Assembly (NCBI GenBank): GCA_021683455.1
Contig: GCA_021683455.1_3051.2
Strand: one strand, 5' to 3'
Source of the DNA: a phage
DNA length: 32,167 nucleotides
The position numbers were made by a program, and so were the translations under genes. The notes under the pieces are model-generated. The model saw nothing but the letters and a program-made list of their open reading frames with translations, ran no database searches and was not told the DNA's origin. Below, one piece after another: positions 14-31,837 of this stretch (the first letter of the stretch is position 1; the number at the start of each line of letters is the position of its first letter).

Positions 14-45
14 TGGTACTATACAACTATCAACTACTGATACAG
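14..45 (+). repeat. 32-nt early promoter -10/leader cassette, copy 1 (TGGTACTATACAACTATCAACTACTGATACAG)
   Basis: Near-identical copies at 14857-14888 (1 mismatch) and 16299-16322; partial at 11269-11282. Confidence 0.85.
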
Positions 46-65
46 AAAACAACTTGGAGAATGAA

Positions 66-329
66 ATGGATAATTACGGCGAACTGTTCAACTTCTTTAT
101 GAAATGTGTTTCAGAAGATTTTGGTCGTACAGTGAATGATATTAAAGTTATCGGTCCTGACCATCCGATGTTTGAAACTTATACAGTAATGGGTAATGAA
201 GACGGTCAGTGGTATACTGTAAAGGTTGTGATTAACATGTTCACTGCTGAAAGTTATGTTAAACTGTCTTCTAAAGTTTACCATGATAACGACGAAATCG
301 CAGAAGAATATTTCAATAATATGAAATAA
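66..329 (+). CDS. hypothetical protein (e.8-position ORF)
   Basis: First in-frame ATG at 66, 5 nt after GGAGA; track frame 54..329 starts at TTG; 87 aa; slot assigned by gene order only. Confidence 0.55.
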   Translation: MDNYGELFNFFMKCVSEDFGRTVNDIKVIGPDHPMFETYTVMGNEDGQWYTVKVVINMFTAESYVKLSSKVYHDNDEIAEEYFNNMK

Positions 330-359
330 GTTTACATAGGCTCATGATTGAGATATTAT
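330..359 (+). promoter_or_regulatory. early promoter (GTTTAC -35 at 330-335; TATTAT -10 at 354-359)
   Basis: T4 early promoter architecture, spacing 18. Confidence 0.5.
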
Positions 360-365
360 GAGCCT
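338..365 (+). other. RNA hairpin (AGGCTCAT / ATGAGCCT, 12-nt loop) between e.8 and e.7
   Basis: Perfect 8-bp inverted repeat read directly; overlaps putative promoter. Confidence 0.45.
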
Positions 366-385
366 ATAATTTGAGGAAAACTGTT

Positions 386-904
386 ATGTCTCTTTATACC
401 GAACTGAATGAAACTTCCGAAAAATCTTTTGATGGTATCTTATCAATAATGCAAAAGCAGGTATTAGAAGAGCTTAGTGAAGCCGCAAGCAATGGGTACA
501 AAGCTTGTCGAGTTCAAAGCCCACATCGCCGCATGTATGAACGCCCTCTTATTAATTGGCTAGAAAGCGAAGGTCTTACGGTTAAGATTTGCCCTGCTAA
601 ATTTGATGTCCCACGTATTCTTAATATTTACTGGGATAAACCGGTTGAGAAAAGTGACACTTGGGTTGTTAATGTAAAAACATGTGATAATGGATGCTCA
701 CTTGAGGTGTCTGCTGTAATTAAAGGCACTCATGGTGAAAAATCGTGGGGTTGGCCTGGTAAAGATAAAGAAATCGTGTTAAGTGTAAAAGCTACTAGTA
801 TTAGTACTCCTATAGCTAAAAGCATTATCACTGCCGCTGTTGAAGAAGCTGAACGAATTTGTAAAATTAAAAATAGTTTACATCTCTTAAGTAGCATGAT
901 ATAA
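386..904 (+). CDS. hypothetical protein (e.7-position ORF)
   Basis: ATG 386 preceded by GAGG at 373-376; track frame 371..904 begins at TTG; 172 aa. Confidence 0.55.
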   Translation: MSLYTELNETSEKSFDGILSIMQKQVLEELSEAASNGYKACRVQSPHRRMYERPLINWLESEGLTVKICPAKFDVPRILNIYWDKPVEKSDTWVVNVKTCDNGCSLEVSAVIKGTHGEKSWGWPGKDKEIVLSVKATSISTPIAKSIITAAVEEAERICKIKNSLHLLSSMI

Positions 905-947
905 TTTTTCTGCAAATTTTAATTTCTAATCAACCTAAGGAAATACT

Positions 948-1541
948 ATGAACACACTGAAGAAAATTGTTGAGTTTATTCGCACTAAACTTGGTTCTGC
1001 TATGGCTAAAAATCTATCTGTTGAAGAGCAGTATACTGCTGCGGCAGCAAAACTACTTGATAAAATTAAAGACCTAAAAACTGCTTCTATTAAATCTATT
1101 AATGAAGAAAAACGTATTCGTGAACTTATTGTCGAAAAGAATAAGCAGGCCGAATCAAAAGAGCGTGAAATTCGCAAGCTCCTTTCTGAAGGTCAAGACG
1201 TAACAATGCATGCTAAACTCGGTTTATTATATCGTCGAACAGCTGAGCAGTTGACTACTAAAGCTGATGGTTATGCTGAAATGCGAATTGAAATTGCCAA
1301 GAAAGTAGTTGAGTTAGATGATGCTCGTCAAGAACTTGCAGTTAAATTGGAATATATCCGTGAAACTCGTGCAGCGAATGCCCTTGGAATTAGTACTGCT
1401 GATGATGTAGTTGAAATCGCAGCACTGACTAAGGTTGATATTGAAGACACACTTGCTCGAGTTGAAACCTTTAATGGCAATATTTCTGGGGTTGAAACTA
1501 CCTCTGCCGATGTTCAGGAATATATTAATTCTCTGAAATAA
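948..1541 (+). CDS. all-helical coiled-coil protein (e.6-position ORF); PspA/ESCRT-III-like layout, unverified
   Basis: AAGGAAA then ATG 948; 197 aa rich in K/E/A/L heptad-like repeats with N-terminal amphipathic segment. Confidence 0.6.
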
Positions 1542-1547
1542 TGATAA

Positions 1548-1561
1548 GGGGCTTCGGCCCC
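1548..1561 (+). terminator. GGGGC-TTCG-GCCCC tetraloop hairpin after e.6 (no clear U-tract)
   Basis: Perfect 5-bp GC stem with UUCG loop. Confidence 0.4.
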
Positions 1562-1582
1562 TATTACTTGGAGTAAATAGGA

Positions 1583-2191
1583 ATGAAAATGCAAAGTGAT
1601 TTCAATTCAATGTTTGAAGAGTTCCAAAGACAAGTTGATGTTCCAGACCAATTATTAAATGCTCTTAAACGTATGGCAGAAGGACGTAATTATTATTGGG
1701 GTTCTTCATATGAAACTGATGAAAGTCTTTCTGGAAGATTTTCTAGAGGTAAAAAGTCTTTAATACGTCCTGGAATACTTATTAACAGTATTGAATCAAT
1801 TCATTCATTAACATGTGATTTTGATGTTGAATTTACTGATTTCATTTCTCCTGAATGGACAGTATGTTATTTAAACGACGATTATGATTATCTTGGCGTT
1901 TATAGTTTAAGTGATGCATGGTTTAAACGTAATTTACAAAAGTCAAATTTATTCTATATTGATACTACTGTAAAATTTCAGGGCAAGAAATATTTCTTTA
2001 CTCTTATAGTTGATTCTGAAACGAAGCATGAAAATAAACGTATTCTTAGTAAAAAGAATATCTTAACTATTGTTGATGATCTTTTTGATAAATTCGTAGA
2101 AAATCCCAATTTTGAAAGCGATTTATTATTAGAAAAATTTGTTAAGGAATGTAGAGAATATGTCAAAGCCATCACTATACCTTCCAAGTAA
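1583..2191 (+). CDS. hypothetical protein (e.5-position ORF)
   Basis: 202-aa ORF; alternative ATG at 1589; C-terminal FVKECREY tail resembles tails of the next three ORFs. Confidence 0.55.
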   Translation: MKMQSDFNSMFEEFQRQVDVPDQLLNALKRMAEGRNYYWGSSYETDESLSGRFSRGKKSLIRPGILINSIESIHSLTCDFDVEFTDFISPEWTVCYLNDDYDYLGVYSLSDAWFKRNLQKSNLFYIDTTVKFQGKKYFFTLIVDSETKHENKRILSKKNILTIVDDLFDKFVENPNFESDLLLEKFVKECREYVKAITIPSK

Positions 2192-2552
2192 ACCGTTGAA
2201 GTATGAATTAAAGCGTCAGATAATTTCTACTGATGTGTTAATAGGTCCTGTGGTAGCCGTATCATTTGTGATTCTGCTGATTGCTGGAATGGTTATAGAC
2301 GTTATGACTGATATTGAATCTGGTGCAATATTTGGAGCAACACTAATTCTTCCATTGGTAGTTCCGCTTTTATTAGTACCTATAAATTGGATAGGATATT
2401 GGTATCAAGGAAGACACTATCGTAAACGTGTACGTGATTGGAAAGCTCAGTGTAAAAAGATTAAAAAGGAACATCAGCTTAAACTTGCTGCGCATGAATT
2501 TGATGAAATTATGAAATTTGTTAAGGAATCACGATGCAAAAGCCAAAACTAA
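2160..2552 (+). CDS. small two-helix membrane protein (e.4-position ORF)
   Basis: First ATG 2160 after AAGGAA (track 2139 is TTG); two hydrophobic segments then basic tail ending FVKESRCKSQN. Confidence 0.55.
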   Translation: MSKPSLYLPSKPLKYELKRQIISTDVLIGPVVAVSFVILLIAGMVIDVMTDIESGAIFGATLILPLVVPLLLVPINWIGYWYQGRHYRKRVRDWKAQCKKIKKEHQLKLAAHEFDEIMKFVKESRCKSQN

Positions 2553-2896
2553 ATAAAGTCAAATATTCGCTTCCTGAGTCATTTTTAATTTTTGCTGTGG
2601 CGTTGGCTGCAGCTCTTGCGGGTAGTCTTTTTGGATTGTTAATTGACTGTATTATTTTAAACATCGACGGCACAGTAAATATAATAGAAGTTTGGAGTGA
2701 ACTTCACTATACTAAAATTATTTCATTATTTTCATTCTTTGGTACCATGTTATATTTTCATTATGATAATTTTAAAATAAATTGGCAAAGAAAAAAGGAT
2801 TACAAAATACAATTAAAGGAATATAACAACTACATGTCTTATATTGAAAAAGAATCAATGGAAGAGTTTGTGAGTGATTGCAGGAAAATTAAATGA
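2534..2896 (+). CDS. small two-helix membrane protein (e.3-position ORF)
   Basis: ATG 2534 after AAGGAA; hydrophobic segments; tail ends FVSDCRKIK; stop overlaps next start (ATGA). Confidence 0.6.
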   Translation: MQKPKLNKVKYSLPESFLIFAVALAAALAGSLFGLLIDCIILNIDGTVNIIEVWSELHYTKIISLFSFFGTMLYFHYDNFKINWQRKKDYKIQLKEYNNYMSYIEKESMEEFVSDCRKIK

Positions 2897-3381
2897 TTTT
2901 AAAAACTCGCTGGTATGATTTAGATGATGGGGATGATGGCATTTCAGTTAATAGAGTTGACTGGAATGGTTGTTCCGAAGATATGAAAAATTTGTTGATT
3001 AGGGAGTTTAGAATGGGATATCAAGCAGCTAAGCCATCTATTATAACAGATGATAAGTTCGTGTGTATTCATAATGGTCGCGCTAAGTTAACGAACGCTG
3101 ATTGGTTCACAGATAAAATTATGATTCTGTGGTATATTATTAGTCTTCCTGTGACATCATTTGTATTTTGCTTCTTTGGTGAAAGTCCAATAGGCAGAAC
3201 AGGAGATTGGATTCTTTTAATTATGCTTGTTAATATTTTGACAGCAGCAATATTATCAGGAATGTGGTGCGTGTTCATTGAAATGCCATGGCGTTTACGC
3301 AGACAGCAAAAGATTTTTGATGAAAAGAAATACGCTCAAAATTTAAATAGCTTTATCACTGAATGCAGGAAATTAAAATGA
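2893..3381 (+). CDS. membrane protein (e.2-position ORF)
   Basis: ATGA overlap with upstream stop; soluble N-terminal part then two hydrophobic helices; tail ends FITECRKLK. Confidence 0.6.
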   Translation: MILKTRWYDLDDGDDGISVNRVDWNGCSEDMKNLLIREFRMGYQAAKPSIITDDKFVCIHNGRAKLTNADWFTDKIMILWYIISLPVTSFVFCFFGESPIGRTGDWILLIMLVNILTAAILSGMWCVFIEMPWRLRRQQKIFDEKKYAQNLNSFITECRKLK

Positions 3382-3818
3382 AAACACTATCAACTGGTAT
3401 TATCTTTATGACAGAAGATAAAGATTTATTTATGGGTCGGGTTACTGGTTCTCGTAAGCCTGGAATGATGGCACATCGCTGGGATATTCCAAAGGGCCGT
3501 GTAGAAAATTCCGATTTAAGCGCATTAGATGCAGCACGAAGAGAATGTTTAGAAGAGACTGGTTTTAGCAATTATAATCCAGACCTTCTAGAAGACCTAG
3601 GTGTATTTAAATATTCTAGTAATAAAGACTTACAGTTATTTTATTATACGATTCCAGTAGAGCATGAGATGTTCAGAAATTGCCATTGCGAGTCTTATTT
3701 TGAAAATAAAGATGGCGTTATGATTCCAGAGATGGACGCTTTTGCTCTTATTCCTCGTACTCAGTGGCAATATGTGATGGGTCCTTCACTTTACCGAATA
3801 ATGAACAACCTCTTTTAA
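3378..3818 (+). CDS. nudE: Nudix hydrolase
   Basis: Nudix box GRVENSDLSALDAARRECLEETGF; ATG 3378 has AGGAA 7 nt upstream and overlaps upstream stop; position next to e as T4 e.1/nudE. Confidence 0.8.
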   Translation: MKTLSTGIIFMTEDKDLFMGRVTGSRKPGMMAHRWDIPKGRVENSDLSALDAARRECLEETGFSNYNPDLLEDLGVFKYSSNKDLQLFYYTIPVEHEMFRNCHCESYFENKDGVMIPEMDAFALIPRTQWQYVMGPSLYRIMNNLF

Positions 3819-4349
<531 letters not shown>

Positions 4350-4353
4350 AGTT

Positions 4354-4384
4354 GTTTACTTTCTCCTAGAATTGTGATAGTATA
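4354..4384 (+). promoter_or_regulatory. early promoter-like element upstream of ip gene (GTTTAC 4354-4359; TAGTAT-like -10)
   Basis: Sequence pattern only. Confidence 0.4.
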
Positions 4385-4437
4385 TTCACAGTTGCTTGAA
4401 GAGACAAATTACTAATTAAAATATTTAAAGGAAACAC

Positions 4438-4707
4438 ATGAAAACATATCAAGAATTTATCACTGAAGCAGCTATTAATTCTCAAATTATTGCTGAATCT
4501 TTTACTGATCTTTTGAAATTTAAAAAAGGTCAAAAAATCACTGCTGTATTGGATGATGGTACAGAAGTTGAGATGGATGTACAGGGATATAATTATGCAG
4601 TAGATGGAAAACTGTATAATAAATCTCATGCTAAATTTGATTCATTTGACGACTTTGTTAATACAGTTGAAGATGAAAAAAACTCGTCGATCCATTGTAA
4701 CTGGTGA
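4438..4707 (+). CDS. internal head protein (IPII/IPIII-like) with capsid-targeting sequence
   Basis: N-terminus MKTYQEFITEA matches the conserved capsid-targeting sequence of T4 internal proteins; AAAGGAAA SD; T4 has ipIII/ipII at this position. Confidence 0.65.
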   Translation: MKTYQEFITEAAINSQIIAESFTDLLKFKKGQKITAVLDDGTEVEMDVQGYNYAVDGKLYNKSHAKFDSFDDFVNTVEDEKNSSIHCNW

Positions 4708-4912
4708 TGCTAAGGTTCTTATGGCACATGGTCATGAACGCATTCGCGCTAAACAGAATAAAATGGGTGAAGATAATTTTGCATTAGTTGGTTATCAATC
4801 TGGTAAACAAACCTATGGTTATCAGCGTACTGCTACCATGTATAATAAAAATGGTAAAATTGCCTTTGTAAATAGTAAAGGTTCTATTCAGTACGTTAAA
4901 TCGTTCAAATAA
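4673..4912 (+). CDS. basic 79-aa ORF overlapping the ip 3' end; separate gene or frameshifted continuation of the ip gene
   Basis: ATG 4673 in +1 frame relative to 4438 ORF, across an A7 run (4676-4682); no capsid-targeting sequence of its own; weak SD. Confidence 0.35.
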   Translation: MKKTRRSIVTGDAKVLMAHGHERIRAKQNKMGEDNFALVGYQSGKQTYGYQRTATMYNKNGKIAFVNSKGSIQYVKSFK

Positions 4913-5049
4913 TATGGGAACAGCCTGGACCTCATTTGAGGTATTCTCGCCAACCTGTGATAAGGTCGAGCCAAAGCGCGGTAATGGGTAATGCAGGAAT
5001 GGACAACTCATGTGCCATGGAATGGCCCAAAAACCTTAAGAGAAATAAT

Positions 5050-5592
5050 ATGAGAACATTTTTAACTGGCCCGTATCTATCCCTGATGAATGCTTTTACA
5101 CACCATTCTGATGCTAGAGTAGAAGAACTTTGTAAGAATGATTATCTTCCACCAATGGAAGATGTGCTCAAACAGTACTGCACACTTCGTATAGATGGTG
5201 GACGTCAATCCGGTAAATCAATTGCTGTGACTAACTTTGCCGCTAATTGGCTGTATGATGGCGGAACAGTTATTGTTCTTTCTAATACTTCAGCTTACGC
5301 TAAAATTTCTGCTGGCAACATTGAAAAAGAATTTTCTCGTTATTCTAGCGATGATATTCGATTCCGTTTATTTACTGATTCTGTCCGTAGTTTTATCGGT
5401 AATGAAGGTCATAAATTCCGTGGGTTATCGCTTTCTCGTATCTTGTACATAATTGACGAACCTATTAAAGCTCCTGATATGGATAAGATTTACAATATCC
5501 ATATTAAAACGGTACAACATTGTTGTCGAAGCTATAATGCTGAAACAGGTGAAACAGTTCGTCCTCAATTTTTTGTGATTGGAATGCAATGA
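5050..5592 (+). CDS. P-loop NTPase-like protein (vs.8-position ORF)
   Basis: Walker A-like GGRQSGKS and Walker B-like ILYIIDEP; start uncertain, frame open upstream to TTG 4936 through a GC-richer segment. Confidence 0.5.
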   Translation: MRTFLTGPYLSLMNAFTHHSDARVEELCKNDYLPPMEDVLKQYCTLRIDGGRQSGKSIAVTNFAANWLYDGGTVIVLSNTSAYAKISAGNIEKEFSRYSSDDIRFRLFTDSVRSFIGNEGHKFRGLSLSRILYIIDEPIKAPDMDKIYNIHIKTVQHCCRSYNAETGETVRPQFFVIGMQ

Positions 5593-5918
5593 TGACAGAC
5601 ACACAGCTTTTCGAATATCTCTATTTTTCGCCAAAAACTATTAAAAATAAATTGGTAAATCATTTTGAAATTTTGGCAAATAATAATATTTTAAGCGAAT
5701 TTTATCCCAAACAATACAAATTACAAAAAGGCGTATTCAAAGGATGCAGAGTTTTATGTACTGCTCCTAATGCACGGCTAATGAATAAAATTCCATATTT
5801 TACCATGGAATTTATTGATGGACCTTTTAAAGGACTAATCACGCAGAGTTTAATGGCATATGATTCTGAGCCGTTTTTAATTAAAGAACAATCTTGGATA
5901 AATTTATTTTCTAATTGA
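5589..5918 (+). CDS. hypothetical protein (vs.7-position ORF)
   Basis: ATGA overlap with upstream stop; 109 aa. Confidence 0.5.
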
Positions 5919-5925
5919 GGTTTAT

Positions 5926-6288
5926 ATGAAAGCATATCAAATTCTTGAAGGCACACATAAAGGCACTATTTATTTTGAAGATGGTATTCAAGCACGAATT
6001 ATTGTCTCTAAAACCTTTAAAGAGGACTCTTTTGTAGACCCAGAAATTTTCTACGGTTTGCATGCCCGTGAAATTGAAATTGAAACACAACCTACAGTTA
6101 AAATTGAAGGTGGTCAACACCTGAACGTTAACGTTCTGCGTCGTGAAACTCTGGAAGATGCAGTTAAGCATCCGGAAAAATATCCGCAGCTGACCATCCG
6201 TGTATCCGGTTATGCAGTTCGCTTTAACTCTCTGACTCCGGAACAGCAGCGCGACGTTATCGCTCGTACCTTCACCGAGAGTTTGTAA
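5926..6288 (+). CDS. autonomous glycyl-radical cofactor, GrcA/YfiD-like (T4 Y06I-type)
   Basis: C-terminal ~60 aa ([59 protein letters not shown]) matches E. coli GrcA C-terminus including glycyl-radical motif RVSGYAV; GAGGT SD. Confidence 0.85.
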
Positions 6289-21912: not shown

Positions 21913-22176
21913 ATGTTTAAAGTATATGGTTATGATAGCAACATCCATAAATGTGTGTATTGTGATAATGCAAAACGTCTTTTGACCGTGAAGAAACAGC
22001 CGTTTGAATTTATCAACATTATGCCGGAAAAAGGTGTTTTTGATGATGAGAAAATCGCTGAGCTTCTGACTAAACTAGGTCGTGATACTCAAATCGGCTT
22101 GACAATGCCCCAGGTATTTGCTCCTGATGGAAGTCATATTGGTGGATTTGACCAACTGCGAGAATATTTTAAATGA
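21913..22176 (+). CDS. nrdC: phage thioredoxin/glutaredoxin (ribonucleotide reductase hydrogen donor)
   Basis: 87 aa with CVYC redox motif; matches T4 thioredoxin as I recall it (MFKVYGYDSNIHKCVYCDNAKRLL...). Confidence 0.9.
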   Translation: MFKVYGYDSNIHKCVYCDNAKRLLTVKKQPFEFINIMPEKGVFDDEKIAELLTKLGRDTQIGLTMPQVFAPDGSHIGGFDQLREYFK

Positions 22177-30634: not shown

Positions 30635-31837
30635 ATGAAAGTATGTATTTTTATGGCTCGAGGTCTTGAAGGTTGTGGTGTAACTAAATTTTCTCTTGAG
30701 CAACGTGATTGGTTTATTAAAAATGGTCATGAAGTAACTTTGGTTTATGCTAAAGATAAATCATTTACTCGTAATTGTGCGCATGATTATAAATCATTTT
30801 CAATTCCGGTTTTATTGGCAAAAGAATATGATAAAACACTTAAGCTGGTAAATGATTGTGATATTCTAATTATCAATTCAGTTCCTGCTACTTCGGTTGA
30901 AGAAGACACCATCAATAACTATAAAAAAATTATTGATAACATTAAACCTTCTGTTCGTGTTGTAGTTTATCAGCATGACCATTCTTCTCTTTCTTTGCGT
31001 CGAAATTTGGGATTAGAAGAAACTGTTCGTCGAGCTGATGTTATTTTTAGCCATTCTGATAATGGTGATTTTAATAAAGTTCTGATGAAAGAATGGTATC
31101 CAGAAACAGTTTCTCTGTTTGATGATATTGAAGAAGCACCGACAGTATATAATTTTCAGCCTCCTATGGATATTGCGAAGGTTCGGTCAACCTACTGGAA
31201 AGATGTTTCTGAAATTAACATGAATATCAACCGTTGGATTGGTCGTACGACTACATGGAAAGGTTTTTATCAGATGTTTGATTTTCACGAAAAACATCTT
31301 AAACCTGCAGGACTAAGTACTATTATGGAAGGTCTGGAACGTTCTCCAGCGTTCATTCCTATTAAAGAAAAAGGAATTCCATACGAGTATTATCGTCTTC
31401 ATCAAGTAGACCAAATTAAAATTGCTCCTAATTTGCCAACGCAAATTCTTGACCGTTATGTAAATAGCGAAATGCTTGAACGCATGAGTAAATCCGGATT
31501 TGGTTATCAACTGAGTAAGTTGGACAAAAAATATTTACAACGTTCTTTAGAATATACTCATCTCGAGCTTGGTGCATGTGGAACAATTCCGGTATTTTGG
31601 AAATCTACTGGCGAAAATTTAAAATTCCGTGTTGATAATACTCCGCTAATTTCGCATGATAGCGGTATCGTTTGGTTTGATGAAAATGACATGGAATCAA
31701 CATTTGAACGTATTAAAGAACTGTCATCTGACCGAGCTCTTTATGACCGTGAACGCGAAAAAGCTTATGAATTTTTGTATCAGCACCAAGATTCAAGCTT
31801 CTGCTTTAAAGAGCAGTTTGACATTATTACAAAATAA
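30635..31837 (+). CDS. agt: DNA alpha-glucosyltransferase (glucosylates hydroxymethylcytosine)
   Basis: 400 aa closely matching T4 alpha-glucosyltransferase as I recall it (…ICIFMARGLEGCGVTKFSLEQRDWFIKNGHEVTLVYAKDK…); AAGAGGA SD; terminator follows. Confidence 0.92.
   Translation: MKVCIFMARGLEGCGVTKFSLEQRDWFIKNGHEVTLVYAKDKSFTRNCAHDYKSFSIPVLLAKEYDKTLKLVNDCDILIINSVPATSVEEDTINNYKKIIDNIKPSVRVVVYQHDHSSLSLRRNLGLEETVRRADVIFSHSDNGDFNKVLMKEWYPETVSLFDDIEEAPTVYNFQPPMDIAKVRSTYWKDVSEINMNINRWIGRTTTWKGFYQMFDFHEKHLKPAGLSTIMEGLERSPAFIPIKEKGIPYEYYRLHQVDQIKIAPNLPTQILDRYVNSEMLERMSKSGFGYQLSKLDKKYLQRSLEYTHLELGACGTIPVFWKSTGENLKFRVDNTPLISHDSGIVWFDENDMESTFERIKELSSDRALYDREREKAYEFLYQHQDSSFCFKEQFDIITK

Follow-up and report, generated by a model that had tools for sequence, protein, structure and literature searches.

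The 32,167-nucleotide stretch of phage DNA analysed here (the window) carries at 4438-4912, on the plus strand, two overlapping open reading frames, which we consider likely to be one gene, ip4, broken by a +1 frameshift where a run of six A residues has gained an A. On rechecking, the coordinates given in the initial annotation proved exact: ORF1 has 89 codons, from ATG 4438 to the TGA at 4705-4707, with the N-terminus MKTYQEFITEA; ORF2, in the +1 frame, extends from ATG 4673 to the TAA at 4910-4912 and encodes 79 amino acids (its longest mechanical start is ATG 4604, ahead of this second ATG); and the frames cross, as described, at an A7 run at 4676-4682. Deletion of one A gives a single 157-amino-acid product which is the same as T2 IpIV except for V87A. 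The proposal, one of two made in that annotation, that this is a frameshifted internal-protein gene is supported by relatives in which a single gene contains A6, by database counts and by the splitting of one Pfam domain between the two ORFs. This is an ordinary homopolymer frameshift allele of a known gene and not a novel gene arrangement; both the gene and the kind of lesion are already known.

The window comes from a T2-like Tequatrovirus and has a T4-type lysozyme gene, e, at 3855-4349, nudE just upstream of it, and then vs, tk, nrdC, nrdD and a-gt. The ip4 gene sits between e and vs.8, as it also does in KIT03, T2, KMB42 and RB51, and in the same position downstream of e the T2 record has an 'IpIV internal head protein' and the RB51 record an 'Ip4', both of 474 nt and 157 amino acids. 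Each of the window ORFs alone matches Pfam PF24183 (DUF7412; 158 positions, curated cut-off 27 bits), ORF1 over profile positions 1-83 (E = 1.8e-46) and ORF2 over positions 82-158 (E = 6e-44), and the ORF pair is therefore not a product of chance. The intact KIT03 homologue matches DUF7412 over positions 1-158 (E = 2.5e-95), whereas either window ORF covers about half of the profile at most, with the frame broken at A7; the locus thus matches the family profile and has no single intact ORF of ~157 amino acids, making it a disrupted allele of the family. The corresponding family in PHROG, 3155, is named 'internal virion protein'. Judged by profile, position and annotation in relatives, ORF1 and ORF2 each make up half of a single known gene, the ip4/ipIV gene found in T2-type Tequatroviruses; DUF7412, PHROG 3155 and the T2 and RB51 annotations all point to this gene and away from ipII or ipIII, with which the initial annotation had suggested comparison.

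ORF1 also has two hallmarks of a T-even internal protein, a leader of the MKTYQEFIxEA type that ends in the prohead-protease cleavage motif, and a place in a variable ip locus. Such variable loci lie beside e or beside 57B in Tequatrovirus genomes, and the window gene is of the kind beside e. Repoila and colleagues reportedly defined extra ip genes in 1994. The leader itself, MKTYQEFITEA (4438-4470, plus strand), equals the N-termini of T2 and RB51 Ip4 and of an IpIII (Pfam Phage_T4_IpIII) encoded on a second contig discussed below, and resembles the N-termini encoded by other annotated ip genes. Like the IpIV/Ip4 genes of T2 and the RB series (PF24183, PHROG 3155), the window gene combines this leader with a locus directly downstream of e, and with one A removed it is 97-99% identical to them in nucleotides; unlike them, it has the extra A at 4676-4682 that shifts the frame after codon 80 and leaves a product of 89 instead of 157 amino acids.

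A putative early promoter lies at 4354-4383 (plus strand): the counterpart of these 30 nt in Yersinia phage fPS-2 bears the annotation 'predicted early promoter'; a generic sigma-70 scan did not flag 4354-4383. The Shine-Dalgarno sequence AAGGA at 4428-4432 (plus strand) forms a duplex of -5.6 kcal/mol with the 16S anti-Shine-Dalgarno sequence and is normally spaced from ATG 4438. From there, 4438-4707 (plus strand) comprises ip4 codons 1-80, nine out-of-frame codons (NSSIHCNW) and TGA, and ip4 codons 81-157 with the stop codon follow at 4682-4912 (plus strand), displaced to the +1 frame. The two forms of the protein would differ in diagnostic peptides: the truncated 89-amino-acid product ends in VEDEKNSSIHCNW, while full-length Ip4 would give junction-spanning peptides, over VEDEKTRRSIVTGDAK or beginning VEDEKTRR. 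An Rfam scan of the whole window gave no matches, and within 4250-5150 no terminator was found and promoter-like matches did not rise above the shuffled expectation. The spacer between ip4 and vs.8 (4913-5049) is relatively G+C-rich, differs from KMB42 and RB51 by small indels, and contains no Rfam match or terminator-like hairpin; a TTG-started ORF (4936-5592) crosses this spacer into vs.8.

Comparison of the run at 4676-4682 (plus strand) with its relatives, by alignment, probe searches and tblastn of the junction peptide, establishes A6 as the ancestral state and A7 as rare. In nucleotide alignment KIT03, T2 and G4507 have A6 opposite the A7 of the window, with the rest of the gene 97-99% identical, and in KIT03 and T2 the aligned sequence is one 474-nt gene for 157 amino acids. 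An 80-nt probe containing A7 matched none of 235 phage records at 99% or better, and among the matches listed all 25 of 25 spanned 79 record bases; the same probe with A6 gave 15 exact matches among 307 hits. When the junction peptide, HAKFDSFDDFVNTVEDEK continued by NSSIHCNW so as to reach into the out-of-frame tail, was used as a tblastn query, residues 1-18 were perfectly matched in 273 of 469 phage records, and in none of the 469 did the match extend beyond the junction into the tail. In a collection of 15 billion proteins, full-length variants of 157 amino acids occur on more than 650 contigs, as against two or three for the 89-amino-acid product. Exact scans of IMG/VR found A6 once and A7 not at all, among T-even contigs too few to serve as a denominator; a JGI metagenome scan gave three matches, all with A6 and none with A7, and a scan of GTDB genomes gave none. 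Nearly every homologue down to 60% identity, from phages of Salmonella and Serratia, is one undivided protein of 156-160 amino acids, and conservation among them is continuous across the junction, the C-terminal half holding most of the invariant residues.

The extra A is nonetheless found in one other genome. ENA metagenome contig ERZ27280609:k141_155662 (here L007) differs from the window as a genome, its flanks being ~91% identical and ipIII being inserted between e and ip4, and it has the same A7 and encodes the same 89-amino-acid product. Its ip4 differs from that of the window by 11 substitutions, of which 10 are synonymous in the restored frame, and corresponds to the intact T4_ev240 ip4 plus the extra A (99.8% identity over 475 positions); over its final 2.4 kb, nothing but the extra A distinguishes L007 from T4_ev240. 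The added A is thus present on two haplotypes, each of which has a close in-frame counterpart; either the insertion arose twice or a recombination patch of less than ~114 nt moved it between them. Its occurrence on both haplotypes is the one mildly notable point of this analysis. At ~1323-1601 of L007, nudE is called at just 92 amino acids, and compared with T4_ev240 the contig lacks 11 nt at its position 1565; a second accessory gene besides ip4 thus looks broken on this contig.

The extra A is probably real. That the phage truly has A6 with an intact 157-amino-acid ip4, and that the seventh A was introduced in sequencing or assembly, is unlikely, although homopolymer length miscalls are the commonest kind of indel error, A7 is absent from the 469 phage records and from the IMG/VR and JGI matches, and the difference between L007 and T4_ev240, a single homopolymer indel with no other change in 2.4 kb, is how an error would appear. 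Against this, the exact 89-amino-acid product is encoded on the Logan contig SRR17762126_328 (6,116 nt), which is 100% identical to window positions 18-6133, so that a separate assembly also calls A7 within 6.1 kb of base-perfect agreement; if the window came from SRR17762126, this contig is independent as an assembly only, not as data. When the ~32 kb of the window was aligned to KMB42 and RB51, only at 4682 did an unpaired indel break the frame of a conserved CDS; the remaining indels whose length is not a multiple of three were intergenic, in compensating pairs within divergent patches, or specific to KMB42. Similarly, among the 30 long homopolymers of the window only 4676-4682 differed in length from relatives, in a comparison made where flanks allowed (16 runs in KMB42 and 10 in RB51). 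That the assembly systematically miscalls homopolymers was rejected, these two surveys having picked out 4676-4682 alone. The identical insertion in a second, unrelated dataset and on another haplotype also argues for a real mutation, as random error would rarely repeat in this way. A small residual chance of error remains. Two other runs in the window may be recorded here: the only other A7, at 30923-30929 in the a-gt region, is in frame (…NNYKKIIDN…) and has the same length as in relatives where comparable; and at 22170, in a T run near the 3′ end of nrdC, ~20 nt before the stop codon, there is a 1-nt indel in which KMB42 is the odd one out and the window agrees with RB51.

If the A7 is real, the locus could still be read as something other than a damaged gene. 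The initial annotation had offered, as its second proposal, two genuine genes: a short internal protein of 89 amino acids and an overlapping basic protein of 79. Neither ORF is interrupted, and on the Logan and ENA contigs each receives its own annotation from gene callers, but the ORFs form adjoining halves of a single Pfam domain and this layout at the A run of ip4 is found in none of the aligned relatives or 469 records; nor does any of these relatives share the overlap together with A7, a pattern which that annotation had named as telling against a frameshift. A separate gene for the 79 residues is, moreover, unlikely because ATG 4673 has no Shine-Dalgarno sequence (anti-Shine-Dalgarno pairing of +0.2 kcal/mol, where ORF1 has -5.6 and lysozyme -11.5), lies inside ORF1, 32 nt upstream of the ORF1 stop, and opens a product lacking the capsid-targeting leader; taken as a whole, the two-gene proposal is extremely improbable. 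Functional recoding, by slippage of RNA polymerase or a +1 slip of tRNA-Lys, or a phase switch between A6 and A7, is distinctly unlikely. It would find support in the ability of tRNA-Lys to re-pair in the +1 frame on the A run, which would give the exact wild-type sequence, in the occurrence of the added A on two haplotypes, and in the independent expansion by one A of the second A6 run of ip4 in G4507. However, none of the 469 phage records shows the two-ORF state at this site, and distant homologues differ in the junction residues E-K-T, so that there is no conserved slippery site. We also found neither a stimulator of a +1 shift (the codon that follows in frame is a common one, AAC, neither a stop nor rare) nor a Shine-Dalgarno-like element upstream, where 22 nt pair with the anti-Shine-Dalgarno sequence at +0.2 kcal/mol. 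For substantial transcriptional slippage, E. coli needs longer runs than seven A residues. Of the causes that the initial annotation had listed for a frameshift, real mutation is favoured over sequencing error, and slippage as a conserved, programmed event is excluded by the comparative data; any read-through would be an incidental leak and not design.

A more specific form of the switch proposal is that the A6/A7 tract and the second A6 run, the one expanded in G4507, together turn an injected internal protein on and off reversibly, and this we regard as very unlikely. The tract is short; A7 occurs on two haplotypes and in 0 of 469 isolate records. An excess of A/T runs in ip4 was considered as a sign of a designed switch and rejected, the gene having two runs of at least six in 474 nt, not significantly above the density in the window (P = 0.065), and so giving no evidence of such design. 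Were there a switch, a population could lose Ip4 under a host defence that senses it and recover it where Ip4 is needed against a restriction system, and the added A on two haplotypes would reflect recurrent selected switching and not chance.

Returning to a frameshifted ip4 as the preferred explanation, a comparable lesion is already on record in vB_EcoM_G4507 (MK327946). Its ip4, at 1589-2063 of that record, likewise has one A added to an A6 run and is annotated as two CDSs; in contrast to the window, the lesion is in the other A6 run (KFKK codons, gene position ~85; the extra A is at about 1673-1679) and gives ORFs of 39 and 120 amino acids. By its position in the gene, the G4507 insertion is an event independent of that in the window. 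Given the added A on a second haplotype and the analogous one in G4507, it seems that the dispensable ip4 is usually inactivated through short A runs. In Klebsiella phage vB_Kpn_AM_K5, the homologue (184 amino acids) is longer than the family and wholly divergent from it at the C-terminus (~134-184), a sign that this ip4 homologue, too, may be frameshifted.

Close relatives differ in what lies between e and vs.8 (window 4350-5050; L006 12862-13963; L007 2283-3000): ip4 alone in the window, KIT03, KMB42 and T2; denV and Ip4 in RB51; and ipIII and ip4 in T4_ev240 and L007. This interval of the window contains no denV. Upstream, the T2 record LC348380 annotates nudE as a 972-nt CDS (527-1498) that spans all of lysozyme e, which looks like an annotation artefact.

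We propose that the A6 run over codons 79-81 (GAA AAA ACT) gained one A, most likely via replication slippage, and that translation from ATG 4438 would then yield the 89-residue product, with the leader and Ip4 residues 1-80 but without the C-terminal half. In T4 internal proteins the leader is the packaging signal and is cleaved off by the prohead protease. As the leader alone directs packaging in these T4 proteins, the truncated product is probably, by analogy, still packaged and trimmed after Glu10 (ITE/A) to a fragment of ~79 residues, minus the conserved C-terminal half. That half would be translated poorly or not at all and, having no leader, would not be packaged. Occasional slippage of RNA polymerase or tRNA-Lys on the A run could allow a trace of full-length protein. 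Ip4 function is probably lost in the A7 allele. AlphaFold2 modelling of the intact protein (13-sequence alignment; mean pLDDT 49.4) was too poor to judge folding of the N-terminal half. Because ip genes are non-essential accessory genes, a phage with this frameshift allele would be viable and, with no known target of Ip4, its loss would be neutral on most hosts.

T4 Ip1, Ip2 and Ip3 are injected, and each inhibits a distinct GmrSD type IV restriction enzyme (PMC12373910); no target or function of Ip4 is reported in the literature (PMC12373910). By analogy Ip4 would belong with Ip1-3 to a class of non-essential packaged and injected proteins, having a similar N-terminal leader and a similarly variable neighbourhood near e, but its mature part belongs to another Pfam family and has no detectable sequence similarity to theirs, and it is only by analogy that Ip4 could be given an anti-restriction role.

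For annotation, our finding means that the ORF pair is best entered as a single ip4 gene disrupted by a frameshift at an A run, and not as two hypothetical proteins. It also means that this phage is a natural ip4-defective isolate and, now that T4 Ip1-3 are each known to block a specific GmrSD enzyme, could be a ready mutant in searches for the target of Ip4.
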